Sequence record: NC_019399.1
Direction: 5' to 3' (one strand)
Length of the DNA: 64,000 nucleotides
Source of the DNA: Escherichia phage vB_EcoM_ACG-C40
Below are positions 2,448 to 63,884 of the stretch, piece after piece. The notes beneath the pieces were generated by a model. It was not told where the DNA came from. It did not search any database and saw only the letters and a program-made list of their open reading frames with translations. The first letter of the stretch is position 1, and each line of letters begins with the position of its first letter. The position numbers were made by a program, and so were the translations under genes.

Positions 2448-4264
2448 TACTGGCTCATCCATTCTTTACGAAGGTCAGCATTATCTCCCATGAGCATTTC
2501 AAAAAGCTCTTTCCAGTTCTCAGGAAGTTTAACAACATCATATACTGGATTTTGAATCATCTCACGATATTCAGATTTTTCCAAAGAGCCAAGTCCTTTA
2601 ATATAACGGATGCTATGTTTAGGTAGAGCATCTTTGGCACTCTCATATTCAGCGACTGTATAAAACCATTCTTGTTTTTTACCGACCTGAGCGATGATTA
2701 CAGGAGTTTTGACGAAGCGAATTCTTCCTTGTTCAAACAGTTCTGGCCAATTACTAAAAAATCCGAGCAGAGAAGGATAAATGCTTCCTAGACCATCATG
2801 GTCAGCATCAGTCATAATAGCGATATTATGATAATTCAAGTTTTCAGCTTTTTCACCGAGAACTAATCCAGTGATTGCGCAAATATCAAACAATTCTTTG
2901 TTTTTAAGCATATCAGCATATGACATACCCCAACTGTTGAGAACTTTACCGCGCAATGGATAACCACCATGAAGTTCTTTATCACGAACATCAATAAGAT
3001 ATCCGATAGCAGAATCACCCTCAGTCAAGAAAAGAGTAGTGTCAGCATCTTTACCGCAAAGATTCGCTTTAATGTGTTTATGAACCTTAGCTTTAGAAGC
3101 CTTTTTAGCTGCTTTAGTTTCTGCTGCCTTTTCTGCCGCCAATTTACGAGCCAAAGCAGCTTCAATAATCGGCATTAGAATTGCTTCATTATTTAGAATA
3201 GCACGTGAAATCTTTTTAGCATCAAGTTGAATATGACTACGGATTTCACCAAATGGAGAAGTCAAACGCTCTTTAGTTTGAGAATCAAATCGCATGTTTT
3301 TCATATCACGGACAAACATAACGATAGTCAAACATTCTTTAACGCGTGCTTTAGTCACATCAATTTTGAACTTACGTTTGATTTGTGGAATAAGGTCTTC
3401 ACAAATATCATCCATAACACAGTCAATGTGATGGCCACCATTCTTAGTGTGAATGTTATTCACATAAGTTAATTGACGAAAACCATCCGGTGAACGACCA
3501 ACCGCAATAGAGCAATTTTCTTGTTCTTGAACGATAGCATGTTCATCATATTGGCGTGCATATTTCTTAAAATTGCCCTGAACCTTTTTACCATTAAAGG
3601 TAAATTGAATATCAGGATAAACTACTGCAAGTGTCTGGAGACGATCTAGTGTAATGTCAAGATAAACTTGGGACAGCTCATTAGTTTCAAATGACATAAA
3701 ATCAGGAATGAAAGTAACACGAGTTCCTTTCCATTTTCCAGGAATATCTTCCCATGATTTATTTTCCATGCCATTTGAACAACGAACTACAATATTATTT
3801 TGACCATCACCAGTTTCACCGACAAACATCACAGAAAAAATGTTTGTCAAACTAGAACCAACACCATTCATACCGCCAGTGACACGTTCTTTATCATCAC
3901 CAAAGTTACCACCTGCTTTTGGAATAGTCCATGCAGCAACTGGACCAGGAATTTCTTCACCGGTAGGTGTTTTAACCATCGCTTGTGGAATACCGCGACC
4001 GTTATCTTCAACTGTTACCTGATTATTTTTAATGGTAACATTAATTTTATTTGCGAATTTAAACTTAGTACGAATACCTTCATCTACTGAGTTATCGATA
4101 ATTTCATCAATAAGCTTAACAAGACCAGGTACATACTGAACACTTTCCCATTTACCAAACAGAAAGCGCTCATGCATTTCATTAGCAGAAGAGCCAATGT
4201 ACATGCCACTACGCTTTTTGATATGTTCAATATCGCTCAGAATTTTAATTTCATTCTTAATCAT
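2447..4264 (-). CDS. 39: DNA topoisomerase II large subunit, fused gene 39+60 form (605 aa)
   Basis: Single ORF; C-terminal IAIMTDADHDGLGSIY...KEWMSQ is the part encoded by separate gene 60 in T4; ATG 4264 preceded by GAGGA; track start 4267 is GTG. Confidence 0.9.
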   Translation of the reverse strand: MIKNEIKILSDIEHIKKRSGMYIGSSANEMHERFLFGKWESVQYVPGLVKLIDEIIDNSVDEGIRTKFKFANKINVTIKNNQVTVEDNGRGIPQAMVKTPTGEEIPGPVAAWTIPKAGGNFGDDKERVTGGMNGVGSSLTNIFSVMFVGETGDGQNNIVVRCSNGMENKSWEDIPGKWKGTRVTFIPDFMSFETNELSQVYLDITLDRLQTLAVVYPDIQFTFNGKKVQGNFKKYARQYDEHAIVQEQENCSIAVGRSPDGFRQLTYVNNIHTKNGGHHIDCVMDDICEDLIPQIKRKFKIDVTKARVKECLTIVMFVRDMKNMRFDSQTKERLTSPFGEIRSHIQLDAKKISRAILNNEAILMPIIEAALARKLAAEKAAETKAAKKASKAKVHKHIKANLCGKDADTTLFLTEGDSAIGYLIDVRDKELHGGYPLRGKVLNSWGMSYADMLKNKELFDICAITGLVLGEKAENLNYHNIAIMTDADHDGLGSIYPSLLGFFSNWPELFEQGRIRFVKTPVIIAQVGKKQEWFYTVAEYESAKDALPKHSIRYIKGLGSLEKSEYREMIQNPVYDVVKLPENWKELFEMLMGDNADLRKEWMSQ

Positions 4265-14737: not shown

Positions 14738-14974
14738 TTAACCACCTATTTTTGTAGGTGTAAACATTGCAGCATTCTTAGTTTTCCAAGTTGCTGCATC
14801 GGAAACTACATCAGAATAAGCTGCTTTTTCTGACGGAAAGATTTGATAATGAGAATCTGCAATACGGTGTTCATTTGAATATACATCAAATGCTACAGAA
14901 ACTTCCATACCTTTAACTTCTTTGCCTTCACCTGCTGGATGAGTAAAGGTCTTGATGTTAACGAAACCACCCAT
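14738..14974 (-). CDS. soc: small outer capsid protein Soc (78 aa)
   Basis: Motifs VNIKTF and YQIFPSEKAAYS match Soc as recalled; own late promoter, AAGGAG and terminator. Confidence 0.8.
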   Translation of the reverse strand: MGGFVNIKTFTHPAGEGKEVKGMEVSVAFDVYSNEHRIADSHYQIFPSEKAAYSDVVSDAATWKTKNAAMFTPTKIGG

Positions 14975-15005: not shown

Positions 15006-15013
15006 TATTTATA
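15006..15013 (-). promoter_or_regulatory. late promoter of soc
   Basis: Exact TATAAATA about 30 nt upstream of soc ATG. Confidence 0.7.
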
Positions 15014-15845
15014 AACCATTTTCAAACCTCTTTATCATATTTATATAGTTTTCATCGGGATAACCTAGACTAACTGCTAACTTTCTAAAATTGACATATT
15101 TAGGTTTGTTGTTATTAATCCATAATTCTCTAAGCTCTTTTTCATAATTCCATTTAAGTTGATTTCTGCGTGCAGTTTTGCTTAAAGTTTTTCCTTTAGC
15201 TTTTAAAGCCTTTTCGGATGACTGTTTTAATTTTTGAATATTTAAAACTTCTTCTATAGATAAATTATTTTCCTTTGAATACCTTATGCAAAAATCTTTT
15301 ACTACGGCTATTAGGCAATTTTTGTGAGTACCTAAAATTTCTGGATTATTTTCTTCAACTAAAATTCCCCAATATCTTCGGTAGCGAGGCATATCCCTTG
15401 AAATCCAGTCATTATACCAAAAATCAAAGTTGGAATACATGAAAGATTTTCTTTTGCGAAGAGTATCTTGGTTTATCCATTGCTCACGTTTATCAGCCCA
15501 TAACTTAATAGTAAAGTCTTTCTCTAAGTCAGAAAGCTTCTTAAATTGCAAGCTATTTACTGAGGTCATTCTCTGGAATGCATTCAGCAATCCAAATCTT
15601 CCAGTTGAACATAAGAGATAGTGAACATATATGTGTTGATATATTGGGAGATATACTCTATTCCAAGGATATATTTTAAAATCACTATACTCAGGAAATG
15701 CGCATTTAGGAAGTATATGATGGGCTTCTGTTTTAGATTTAATGTGAGTGTTTAACTTATACTTATCTATAATTTTTAAGTACTCATCTAAAAGTTCCCG
15801 CAATGGGAACTTTTCTTTAAGAGCAGATTTGAAATTAATATCCAT
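15009..15845 (-). CDS. HNH-type homing endonuclease-like protein
   Basis: EAHHILPK motif; very AT-rich; between soc and gene 56; ATG 15845 (track start 15860 is TTG). Confidence 0.5.
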   Translation of the reverse strand: MDINFKSALKEKFPLRELLDEYLKIIDKYKLNTHIKSKTEAHHILPKCAFPEYSDFKIYPWNRVYLPIYQHIYVHYLLCSTGRFGLLNAFQRMTSVNSLQFKKLSDLEKDFTIKLWADKREQWINQDTLRKRKSFMYSNFDFWYNDWISRDMPRYRRYWGILVEENNPEILGTHKNCLIAVVKDFCIRYSKENNLSIEEVLNIQKLKQSSEKALKAKGKTLSKTARRNQLKWNYEKELRELWINNNKPKYVNFRKLAVSLGYPDENYINMIKRFENGL

Positions 15846-16353
15846 TATCTTGACGTTCAAAATTATGTTTGTTCTTCAGATAATAAAGTTTAAAGATTTC
15901 TTCAGCTGTAAGACCAAGACCCTGGAACATATTCAGAACGAAATGAAGAATATCAATCATTTCAAATTTAATTTCTAACTGGTCTTGCGGAGACAAATCA
16001 GTAATCAGAGTTTCACGTCGTTCACCATGTTGAGCTTTCCAAGGCTTCCATACAGCAGATGCATCTTTTTCACCATTGCTCATACCACCAAGAGAAGTCA
16101 GAAGTTCGCGGAATTCATCATCAATATAATCTTTCTGATTACGCAGCCAATCAACAACTTCACCTGCAGTAGCCAAATCATCAGGATGACGGTTATATTC
16201 AGGTTTATCTTTAGCTAAACGAATCTGCAGAGATTTCTGCATGTCAAGCATTACCTGCAGCGGGTCTTTTTCATCACCGAGAATATCCCAATATTCATTT
16301 TGAGCTTTATCAGCGCCTTCGATCAGTTGACTACATTCGTTAAAGTAAGCCAT
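15835..16353 (-). CDS. 56: dCTP pyrophosphatase gp56 (172 aa)
   Basis: N-terminus MAYFNECSQLIEG as in T4 gp56; ATG 16353 after AAGGA; track start 16368 is TTG. Confidence 0.85.
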   Translation of the reverse strand: MAYFNECSQLIEGADKAQNEYWDILGDEKDPLQVMLDMQKSLQIRLAKDKPEYNRHPDDLATAGEVVDWLRNQKDYIDDEFRELLTSLGGMSNGEKDASAVWKPWKAQHGERRETLITDLSPQDQLEIKFEMIDILHFVLNMFQGLGLTAEEIFKLYYLKNKHNFERQDNGY

Positions 16354-16413: not shown

Positions 16414-17753
<1,340 letters not shown>

Positions 17754-17778
17754 TATATCATCCTCAGCAATTTATTTT

Positions 17779-17808
17779 ATAATACCATAACAAGCTGAGA
17801 AAGTAAAC
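17779..17808 (-). promoter_or_regulatory. T4-type early promoter
   Basis: GTTTAC, 18 bp, TGGTATTAT. Confidence 0.6.
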
Positions 17809-17852
17809 AAATTTATGAAATTTGTGATAAATATTAATTTAAAGGAGGACAT

Positions 17853-18053
17853 ATGGCACAAAAATTAATGGCACTTGTTAATGCCATCAAAGGTAATAAA
17901 AAGCGTATAGCTTTTACTATTTCTGCTATGGTAGGAATTTTACTCTGGAACTTTATTTTATCACCAATTGCAATTGCGCATGGTGTTAATATTCCAGTAG
18001 TTACTCTTGATACATTCGTAGATCTAGCATTTGCTTTAGTTGGGTTAATTTAA
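17853..18053 (+). CDS. small two-helix membrane protein (66 aa), plus strand
   Basis: AAGGAGG 5 nt before ATG; two hydrophobic segments; stop overlaps primase stop in TTAA. Confidence 0.5.
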   Translation: MAQKLMALVNAIKGNKKRIAFTISAMVGILLWNFILSPIAIAHGVNIPVVTLDTFVDLAFALVGLI

Positions 18054-19078
18054 ATCTTGGCATATTTAGATAACCGCATTTTAGCCATTAACCCCTGGGC
18101 AATATTATTTTTCATATATTCCATAATTTGTTCAGGGGTTGCACCTTCCTTTCTAATCATATCATTAACATCTTTTGATTTCCAGGGAGATTTATCCCAA
18201 AACATAACCCTTTCTCCTGCATCAACTAATTTAGTCATTCGCTTGATAGTGTCAGGGTGACGAGGTTCATTATCTAAAACCCACACTCGTCTATCTTTAA
18301 ATGGAACAACTTCTAGGTCTAATTGACCACCCGTAATAGCTATACCATTTTCAATAAAAAGTGAATCTATAGGTCCTTCTAGAACATATACATCACCATC
18401 TTTAACTCGTTCGACTCCATATATTTTTGTTGCCTCAGGATAAGCTTTGATGGTGATATATTTTTGAGGAGCATCTTTCTTTAATGCACGTCCTTGAAAA
18501 GACTCAGCTTTTCCGTTAGCATTATAAATTGGAATAACAAGACGAGGCTCAGGTGTTTCCTTTTTATATGTTCCTGGAGCTATACTATTAACTAATTTAG
18601 GCCATTCGGTTGTAAACCAAAGATATTTCCATTTATCCTTTGGAATACAACGAGCTTTTACATATTTTATAATTGGATGGTCTTCCGCCAGTTTATCTAA
18701 TCTAACACATGACGGAAGAGATTTAATTATTTTCTTCTCAGGATGTTTAGGAAGTTCTTTAGGTTTTTCTACTGGACGACTTTTACCTTTTTCTTTTCTT
18801 ATTTCAAAGATATACTCACGATATAAATCAGGTTCAAACTCCTTTAAATATATTCCGATTGGTGCATGATAGTTACAGTTATAACAATGAATATTTCCTT
18901 CATTATTATCGCCATAATACCATCCACGGGCTTTATTTTGATCGGTTTTTGAATCTCCACAAACGGGACATCTAAACCGTAATTTAAAAGTTGAACTATT
19001 ATTTACTTGTGTGAATTTAGGTAAATGAGCTAATGCACGATATGCAAACTCATTATCAATCCAAGCTATTGATGACAT
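18050..19078 (-). CDS. 61: DNA primase gp61 (342 aa)
   Basis: Zinc ribbon CPVCGDS...CYNC and length match T4 gp61. Confidence 0.9.
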   Translation of the reverse strand: MSSIAWIDNEFAYRALAHLPKFTQVNNSSTFKLRFRCPVCGDSKTDQNKARGWYYGDNNEGNIHCYNCNYHAPIGIYLKEFEPDLYREYIFEIRKEKGKSRPVEKPKELPKHPEKKIIKSLPSCVRLDKLAEDHPIIKYVKARCIPKDKWKYLWFTTEWPKLVNSIAPGTYKKETPEPRLVIPIYNANGKAESFQGRALKKDAPQKYITIKAYPEATKIYGVERVKDGDVYVLEGPIDSLFIENGIAITGGQLDLEVVPFKDRRVWVLDNEPRHPDTIKRMTKLVDAGERVMFWDKSPWKSKDVNDMIRKEGATPEQIMEYMKNNIAQGLMAKMRLSKYAKI

Positions 19079-19247: not shown

Positions 19248-19874
19248 TTAACCTCTATTCATAAAAGCATTAAAAATTTGGTCATCAATAGAAACATCTA
19301 CTTTAGACTGTTTTTCTGATGGTAATTCATATCCACATATTACAATTTTGTGATCAATATCAAAATACACAGAAGCAATATGATTAATGATGTTTTCAGT
19401 AAAGTCTAAATCAACATCAATATCTTTTTGACCAAAGCCCAAAGGATAAATAATGCGAGTAATTCGATTATCTTTAACAAAGATTCCACCGACATACTCT
19501 GTACTGCGTTTAAAGTCTACACGCCGACGAAATGAAAAATATTCAGGCTCTTTATGAGCTCGGCTCATAGGGCACAACGAATAACTAGAATAAGAGATGT
19601 CAAATCCTACGCCTTCAATATGAGCCAAAGTATCATGATTAAACCAATTATAATCGTACGCCAAATCCATTAGATTATAATATGTGAAAGGCACCGGATT
19701 AACATCATTGGTCACAAGCATATAATTAGCAACTGCTATAATTTCATTATTTTTAACGAATACAAACCGTGATTGATGCGAATGGCCTGGACCTGCGTTT
19801 TCACGATTAATGATATAACACTGGGCACCTTTATATTTGTACGTGTCTTTACACTTGTGCATTTGATAGAGCAT
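19248..19874 (-). CDS. hypothetical protein (61.2 position, 208 aa)
   Basis: ATG start. Confidence 0.5.
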   Translation of the reverse strand: MLYQMHKCKDTYKYKGAQCYIINRENAGPGHSHQSRFVFVKNNEIIAVANYMLVTNDVNPVPFTYYNLMDLAYDYNWFNHDTLAHIEGVGFDISYSSYSLCPMSRAHKEPEYFSFRRRVDFKRSTEYVGGIFVKDNRITRIIYPLGFGQKDIDVDLDFTENIINHIASVYFDIDHKIVICGYELPSEKQSKVDVSIDDQIFNAFMNRG

Positions 19875-20167
19875 TATTCACCTACCACTTCAGCGATGAT
19901 ATTTTTATTATTAAAGTTTTTATCGCAATACAGAACATAATTATACTGCATTACACCACCAGATTTAAGTTGTTTTTGCACTTCAGCTTTCATTTCAGGA
20001 CGATCACGCTCAACGATATTCATAATATCCGCTTCAATTTGAATTTCAACTTCAGTCTGATCTGCAGTCATAGACCATTCGCACAAATCTTTGTCATAAC
20101 CCGCCATAGCAGGCTGAGCAGCGCAAGAAGATAAAGCAAAAATTGTAGCAAAGATAAATTTTTTCAT
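19874..20167 (-). CDS. sp: Spackle periplasmic protein (97 aa)
   Basis: Signal peptide MKKFIFATIFALSSCAAQPAMA; length and position match T4 Sp. Confidence 0.7.
   Translation of the reverse strand: MKKFIFATIFALSSCAAQPAMAGYDKDLCEWSMTADQTEVEIQIEADIMNIVERDRPEMKAEVQKQLKSGGVMQYNYVLYCDKNFNNKNIIAEVVGE

Positions 20168-63338: not shown

Positions 63339-63884
<546 letters not shown>

Follow-up and report, generated by a model that had tools for sequence, protein, structure and literature searches.

A conserved small ORF facing primase gene 61 in Tequatrovirus: a probable late gene for an inner-membrane protein, absent from the T4 reference annotation

The 64,000-nucleotide stretch of Escherichia phage vB_EcoM_ACG-C40 (NC_019399.1) analyzed here, called the window below, carries a 66-amino-acid (aa) open reading frame (ORF) on its plus strand that runs tail to tail into the minus-strand gene 61, which encodes the DNA primase. 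To judge from comparison with related phages, this small ORF is a genuine, conserved protein-coding gene under purifying selection, and we put at above 0.9 the probability that it is a real, late-promoter-driven gene for a small, bitopic inner-membrane protein. It belongs to the PHROG 2024 family, is the ortholog of RB69ORF029w and has an intact counterpart in bacteriophage T4 itself.

Conservation and context of the small ORF

The window comes from a member of the Tequatrovirus genus, and over 1 kb around the ORF it shares 99.8% identity with phages such as fFiEco06, JB75 and YUEEL01. The gene order is of the T4 type -- soc, a homing-endonuclease-like ORF, 56, dam, a 186-aa ORF, the small ORF, 61, 61.1, 61.2, sp, 61.4, dmd and 41 -- with gene 61 occupying the same place as in T4. 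Between 13.6 and 22 kb, soc, 56, dam, 61, 61.1, 61.2, sp, dmd and 41 are all found on the minus strand, and the other plus-strand ORFs are all of 77 aa or less, nearly all of them lying within longer minus-strand genes. An earlier, sequence-only reading of this DNA had described a lone plus-strand ORF that converges on the primase gene, the two stop codons having a TTAA in common; both the layout and the TTAA are present as described (Table 1).

In T4, where that reading had proposed a synteny comparison between dam and 61, the ORF lies intact in the gap between the two genes, at 17738-17938, with 63 of its 66 residues identical to those of the window copy. Close relatives with an absent or disrupted ORF, which would have spoken against a gene, were also looked for; the ORF is present in T4, T2, T6 and essentially all Tequatrovirus records. 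With the primase segment of the window as query, 501 phage records match at 95% identity or higher, a search with the DNA of the small ORF matched 502 records (501 of them with at least 80% query coverage), and tblastn at 80% protein identity or more finds the ORF in 501. Since the record counts for primase and small ORF are equal, the latter is effectively universal in Tequatrovirus. PYps14T, KK4, TOPO13 and AV121 each have an annotated 66-aa protein identical to the one here. In the record of phage Shinka (MZ502379.1, positions 17309-17505) the ORF match is 100% identical but comes in two tblastn pieces and carries no annotation, which points to a frameshift there or to an error in sequencing.

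Beyond Tequatrovirus there are homologs with 27-68% identity, again on the plus strand and convergent on primase. This context was checked in RB69 (Mosigvirus), EAWsc9 and VR20 (Gaprivervirus), CkP1 (Karamvirus), JD18 (Jiaodavirus), Marfa (Marfavirus) and PM2 (Mosugukvirus), so that the tail-to-tail layout is found in seven genera, Tequatrovirus included. Further tblastn matches at the same map position are seen in S16/STML-198-like, Moon-like and Dhaka-like phages and in Enterobacter, Edwardsiella and Hafnia phages. The 4-nucleotide (nt) overlap between the stops of the small ORF and primase also occurs in T4, RB69, CkP1 and Marfa, and PM2 has an overlap of 21 nt; JD18 and EAWsc9 have a hairpin-containing gap between the two genes instead. 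In VR20, a second, 46-aa tandem paralog (MGFLTLDVFLWNLLVVPIAAIQGVHLPQVTMEH...; plus strand, 2759-2899 of locus L014) lies between the 65-aa gene and primase, its stop overlapping the primase stop. The sequence of this paralog resembles the Marfa/PM2 subfamily, indicating that the family has two subtypes, and EAWsc9 seems to carry a decayed copy of it (L004, 2759-2830).

The small ORF matches phrog_2024 over its full length (E = 1.6e-31, residues 3-66 on profile positions 2-65 of 65). A single-sequence, word-indexed protein search reached close relatives only, while an alignment query and an exhaustive profile search reached further. The exhaustive search covered 1.84 billion cluster representatives and found 11 matching clusters, with the common pattern W-N-[FYL]-x3-P...G...P...[LI]-[DE]. 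The family is a narrow, phage-specific one, and its range seems limited to enterobacterial T4-like phages.

Selection was assessed from the ratio of nonsynonymous to synonymous substitutions (dN/dS), using Nei-Gojobori estimates on few sequences (a scan of IMG/VR gave 10 loci). Within Tequatrovirus the values are mostly 0.12-0.22, with pairs that differ by very few substitutions scattering from 0 to 0.6, and within Mosigvirus they are 0.10-0.13; between genera dS is saturated and dN is about 0.45. The earlier claim of a genuine gene is thus borne out by conservation, purifying selection and synteny.

Expression signals and predicted topology

Late transcription of the small ORF is predicted, with good comparative support, from the sequence signals in front of it. 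The start codon is preceded by GATAAATA, a T4 late-promoter-like element (consensus TATAAATA), and by a strong Shine-Dalgarno match. The sequence-only reading had placed a late promoter about 25 nt upstream, in agreement with the 19 nt (from the end of the motif) or 27 nt (from its start) found here; it had also placed AAGGAGG 5 nt before the ATG, and here the motif stands while the spacer is 4 nt, not 5. The T4 counterpart of GATAAATA lies at 17709-17716. Among 11 representatives of the family, 10 have an ATAAATA core 12-23 nt before the ATG, the exception being CkP1 with TTAAATA; the first base of the octamer is variable (G, A, C or T), and a Shine-Dalgarno of the GGAG/AGGAGG type is kept in all 11. 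Core and Shine-Dalgarno are both kept although the upstream DNA is unrelated between lineages.

Over the window as a whole ATAAATA is depleted four-fold, with 10 sites on the two strands compared to 41 +/- 7 in shuffled sequence, which suggests selection against stray late promoters. Half of those 10 sites precede a Shine-Dalgarno and an ATG, namely those of soc, gene 49, rI.-1/rI, e and the small ORF; for soc, 49, rI.-1/rI and e, late transcription is known. The record of phage Lutter has an 8-bp plus-strand promoter annotated at the homologous site. A sigma-70-like sequence matching at 9 of 12 positions is also seen upstream (17734-17761, plus strand); matches of this quality are about as frequent in the region as chance predicts (12 versus 11.2 expected). 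The small ORF would be transcribed only late, by phage late machinery of the gp55/gp33 type, because no other plus-strand promoter serves this block of early genes. It would in this respect be much like T4 soc, a late gene in an early-gene block with its own TATAAATA-type promoter and Shine-Dalgarno (in the window, soc is at 14738-14974 and its promoter motif at 15006-15013). The two differ in strand and product: soc shares the strand of its early neighbors and encodes a capsid decoration protein, whereas the small ORF runs against its neighbors and encodes a membrane protein.

The slot between dam or 56 and the small ORF is a hotspot of gene turnover (17754-17825 in the window, 1-541 in locus L016 and 3127-3209 in locus L001). 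In the window it contains a nuclease-like ORF; T4 has a deletion scar there, fPS-90 has a homing endonuclease, and RB69, in which gene 56 abuts the small ORF, has nothing. The late-promoter core and the small ORF stay fixed despite this turnover.

The product had been described in the sequence-only reading as a small membrane protein with two hydrophobic helices. The membrane assignment is supported by hydropathy, by the AlphaFold2 helix at residues 16-42 and by insertion energy; of the two helices, the one at residues ~19-42 is a convincing span, and the C-terminal one, with its unfavorable insertion energy and two Asp, is not. AlphaFold2 was run on a 10-sequence alignment and gave a model (predicted local distance difference test, pLDDT, 78) with helices at 2-14, 16-42 and 52-63 and a loop at 43-51. 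Insertion energies, calculated as a crude, position-independent sum with the Hessa scale, are +0.4 kcal/mol for the span at ~19-42 (-2.4 to +3.5 across the family), with which hydropathy agrees, and +6.5 kcal/mol for the best 19-residue window of the C-terminal segment (+5 to +14 across the family), which includes the conserved acidic residues. The C-terminal helix, 12-15 residues long and with two Asp, is on these predictions too short and too polar for a normal membrane span. The N-terminal tail has charges of +5/-0 and the C-terminal tail of +0/-2, for which the positive-inside rule predicts an N-in/C-out orientation; we infer that the protein inserts into the inner membrane in this way.

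Across the family, the positions that are invariant or nearly so are W32, N33, P38, (A42, H43), G44, P48, L52 and D/E53, which in the predicted topology belong either to the periplasmic tail or to the half of the helix that crosses the outer leaflet. A conserved Asn inside a span is a classic determinant of helix-helix association. The predicted cytoplasmic N-terminus is swapped wholesale between subfamilies and is the least conserved region across genera.

Pfam gave nothing relevant for the ORF (E up to 1) or for ten family members (E up to 10), NCBIfam gave noise matches alone for ten diverse members (P13 porin and NSm), PADLOC had no match for the small ORF, and a sequence-profile search of the PDB gave noise alone (E ~1.8). 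Foldseek with the AlphaFold2 model found nothing in the PDB and, among viral structures, significant E-values for the protein's own family alone. A profile search of the 937 ORF fragments of the window, sp included, detected no paralog, the ORF itself being the sole match. The hypothetical proteins of PHROG 2024, RB69ORF029w and RB32ORF030w among them, are members of the same family, with position and orientation as in RB69; there is no structural difference from them. PHROG 2024 carries no functional assignment, and the T4 reference records lack the gene. Of the other records, many use the label "hypothetical protein" or "putative membrane protein", while the labels "holin" and "head morphogenesis protein" are found in a few; where "holin" is used, it is an uncurated name for a member of this very family.

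Table 1. Features at the small-ORF locus, in window coordinates.
Feature	Position	Strand	Remarks
Small membrane protein, coding sequence	17853..18053	+	66 aa; ATG 17853, TAA 18051-18053; product MAQKLMALVNAIKGNKKRIAFTISAMVGILLWNFILSPIAIAHGVNIPVVTLDTFVDLAFALVGLI
Identity of the small ORF			PHROG 2024 family; RB69ORF029w ortholog; unannotated T4 ORF 17738-17938
Primase gene 61, convergent neighbor	18050..19078	-	342 aa; phrog_47 DNA primase match
TTAA, overlapping stops of small ORF (+) and primase 61 (-)	18050..18053	both	
T4 late-promoter-like element GATAAATA	17826..17833	+	consensus TATAAATA; 19 nt upstream of ATG
Shine-Dalgarno AAGGAGG	17842..17848	+	4 nt before ATG
N-terminal amphipathic helix and basic cluster KGNKKR	17856..17906	+	codons 2-18; predicted cytoplasmic
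Single robust transmembrane helix	17907..17978	+	codons 19-42; invariant W32, N33, P38
Predicted periplasmic tail	17979..18050	+	codons 43-66; H43-G44, P48...L52-D53 loop, short acidic/hydrophobic helix 52-63
Hairpin (11 bp, 4-nt loop) then UUUUUGU	17855..17890	-	candidate intrinsic terminator of primase (61) transcript
186-aa ORF	17193..17753	-	phrog_8706; stop overlaps dam start codon by 1 nt
283-aa ORF	15009..15860	-	T4 segF position, between soc and 56; 26-nt overlap with 3' end of 56

Possible roles of the protein

The role we favor, tentatively and with a probability of only about 0.3, is modulation of a late envelope or lysis-stage process via a partner at the periplasmic face; it holds the largest share, each of the alternatives (holin or antiholin, exclusion or anti-defense, assembly, RNA-level) being improbable. 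The protein would be an accessory one, made late and oriented N-in/C-out, with another membrane protein as the partner that it binds at the periplasmic face, because its invariant residues, including the Asn in the span, are predicted to be on that side of the membrane, in the outer leaflet or beyond it. Tuning of a process at the envelope or at the lysis stage, late in infection, would then be its most likely role, and not the formation of a hole of its own. MgrB, AcrZ and MgtS would be an analogy in mode of action only: they are single-pass proteins of less than 70 aa with conserved residues in or near the transmembrane segment, and bind a larger membrane protein, but they have no homology to the small phage protein. 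A bolder version, in which the protein is a missing envelope or lysis component of T4, overlooked in six decades of genetics and in reference-based omics, and perhaps also an antisense brake on primase, is rather doubtful; the omission of its gene from the T4 reference records would explain why it escaped, and it might, for example, be a periplasmic-face partner of holin T, RI or a spanin, or serve to keep the membrane energized until lysis.

Several points weigh against the role favored here, and some against what it builds on. The family and fold matches give no functional hint, and no partner emerges from them. Extensive hunts for rapid-lysis mutants of T4 reportedly recovered only rI, rII, rIII, rIV (= sp) and rV (= t); as the small ORF was not among them, its loss probably has no strong lysis-inhibition phenotype, and a strong role in lysis inhibition is unlikely, though it may have a subtle one. 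(The identity of rIV with sp is given in Abedon's review.) The topology prediction derives solely from charge bias and a crude hydrophobicity sum. Within Gaprivervirus dN/dS is as high as 0.35-0.63, and the estimate for each pair is built on few substitutions, though their direction is consistent. Finally, the one T4 omics study examined, a time-resolved one (PMC9697503), counted reads on the features of NC_000866.4 only, and is therefore blind to the small ORF.

The sequence-only reading had suggested a holin, an antiholin or a superinfection-exclusion protein, and none of these fits well. That the protein is itself a holin, pinholin or antiholin timing lysis would agree with its being small, membrane-embedded and apparently late, with a transmembrane segment at ~19-42 in 66 aa, with a helix that in some members is fairly rich in Gly, Ala, Ser and Thr (0.23-0.42; the fraction is 0.43 in the signal-anchor-release domain of RI), and with the few records that use the name "holin". 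It is nonetheless unlikely: ten diverse members have no Pfam or NCBIfam match, holin families included; only one span is robust; the C-terminus, ...DLAFALVGLI, is hydrophobic and acidic, its +0/-2 tail having no basic residues, so that there is no charged cytoplasmic tail; and the gene is located among replication genes, unlinked to e, t or the spanin genes (its neighbors are dam, the nuclease-like ORF and primase, while e, a minus-strand gene with its start near 63830, is ~45 kb distant). T4 also has a well-defined holin, T. With class II holins and pinholins such as S21 of the lambdoid phage 21, the protein thus shares a small size, an inner-membrane location and apparently late expression, but it differs in having no family match, one robust transmembrane segment, no charged C-terminal tail and a place outside the lysis cassette. 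The Met1...Lys4...Met6 N-terminus of the Tequatrovirus members bears a superficial likeness to the dual-start paradigm of lambda S; a Met1/Met6 dual start for holin and antiholin was considered and rejected, Met6 being genus-specific, 19 nt from the Shine-Dalgarno and without one of its own. T4 RI resembles the predicted layout, with a membrane anchor at its N-terminus and a C-terminal part in the periplasm, and rI in the window also lies downstream of a TATAAATA motif, via rI.-1; however, RI has a globular periplasmic domain of ~70 residues as compared to a tail of ~24 residues here, and the two are unrelated (hhalign probability 1.3% over 7 aligned columns), the resemblance of "F[VI]LSP" to the RI anchor being a coincidence. 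A protein acting in superinfection exclusion or anti-defense, against DNA entry by other phages or a membrane-acting host defense, is quite doubtful as well. In its favor are the small inner-membrane protein itself, the neighboring exclusion-related sp (19874-20167, 1.8 kb away) and the accessory-gene hotspot just upstream, with its restriction-enzyme-like ORF here and homing endonuclease in fPS-90, and the T4 proteins Imm and Sp are also small envelope proteins of T-even phages. But those two exclusion proteins are needed, and made, early, whereas the small ORF seems to have a late-type promoter alone; its presence in essentially every Tequatrovirus record and its synteny across genera are unlike typical accessory or defense genes; and there is neither a PADLOC match nor any paralogy with ORFs of the window, its profile showing no similarity to sp.

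A membrane-bound assembly factor, acting for instance in prohead or baseplate initiation on the inner membrane, would suit a late gene, most T4 late genes being morphogenetic, and one conserved as universally as the core morphogenesis genes; the T6 and BW-1 records do label it "putative head morphogenesis protein". Those labels are uncurated, however, and the conserved residues are predicted to face the periplasm while head assembly takes place on the cytoplasmic face, where the N-terminal part is the least conserved across genera; in addition, the family is apparently confined to enterobacterial T4-like phages while true assembly genes span all T4-like phages, so this role is not a likely one. 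The locus might instead work mainly at the RNA level, a late antisense RNA shutting down the primase mRNA, with the DNA doubling as a terminator and the peptide secondary. The hairpin on the minus strand is embedded in codons 1-13 of the small ORF (dG, the folding free energy, -12.4 kcal/mol, z -2.6); the T4 version has 8 bp (-8.9 kcal/mol, z -2.4), and the fPS-90 record has a minus-strand terminator annotated at the same place. In Tequatrovirus the hairpin and U-run probably end the primase transcript; the hairpin was sought in six other genera and is absent there, which makes it a Tequatrovirus-level overlay and not a feature of the family. A scan of the window found no plus-strand intrinsic terminator after the small ORF, and given the overlapping stops any late small-ORF mRNA would run antisense to the primase mRNA at its 3' end. 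The missing plus-strand terminator, the minus-strand one inside the ORF and the overlapping stop codons kept in several genera would all be in keeping with an RNA-level function. It is very unlikely all the same, as the protein is conserved where synonymous sites are saturated, with dN/dS below 1, the Shine-Dalgarno is kept everywhere, the hairpin-containing gap in JD18 and Gaprivervirus would limit antisense overlap, and it is only in Tequatrovirus that the minus-strand hairpin occurs. The primase mRNA may be affected at the RNA level as a side effect, though not as the main cause of the conservation of the ORF, because selection acts at the protein level. As for a chance ORF in the 3' untranslated region of primase, its omission from the T4 reference annotations would be in line with this, but conservation, synteny, selection and expression signals effectively refute it and leave it next to no weight.

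Neighboring ORFs and the T4 annotation

Two neighbors of the small ORF deserve mention. The 186-aa ORF next to dam has sub-threshold matches to type II restriction enzymes (PADLOC REase_II, E = 9e-5; Pfam DpnII, 0.0045, and BanI, 0.009, both Pfam matches being below the curated cut-offs) and no sequence relative in the PDB. It is found in ~144 of 502 Tequatrovirus records, one of which labels it "putative restriction endonuclease", and T4 retains its 3' remnant alone (L001, 3140-3202). It may encode a GATC-type nuclease that the phage carries as a partner of Dam. The 283-aa ORF in the position of T4 segF is longer than SegF (224 aa) and has no match in NCBIfam; it is probably a homing endonuclease different from SegF.

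Neither of the T4 reference records, AF158101.6 and NC_000866.4, has a feature in the 309-bp gap between dam and 61 (17626-17934), where the small ORF is intact. The gene is not novel: hundreds of genomes already list its product as a hypothetical protein, and the family has a PHROG entry. A literature search found no paper naming RB69ORF029w or RB32ORF030w, and nothing on the small-ORF locus was found in the literature on T4 transcript maps, unannotated ORFs or ribosome profiling. We regard it as an ordinary but uncharacterized gene that has been overlooked in T4.

T4 is the reference organism of this group of phages, and yet both of its records lack a gene that is genus-wide and syntenic in seven genera. 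Peptide searches and the design of knockouts or of CRISPR interference (CRISPRi) guides that start from the AF158101.6 or NC_000866.4 annotations would likewise miss it. Otherwise this is one more uncharacterized small phage membrane protein, and no surprise to a specialist; still, adding the gene to the T4 reference would be a cheap correction, and would provide a defined candidate for unexplained late, membrane-linked phenotypes of T4.

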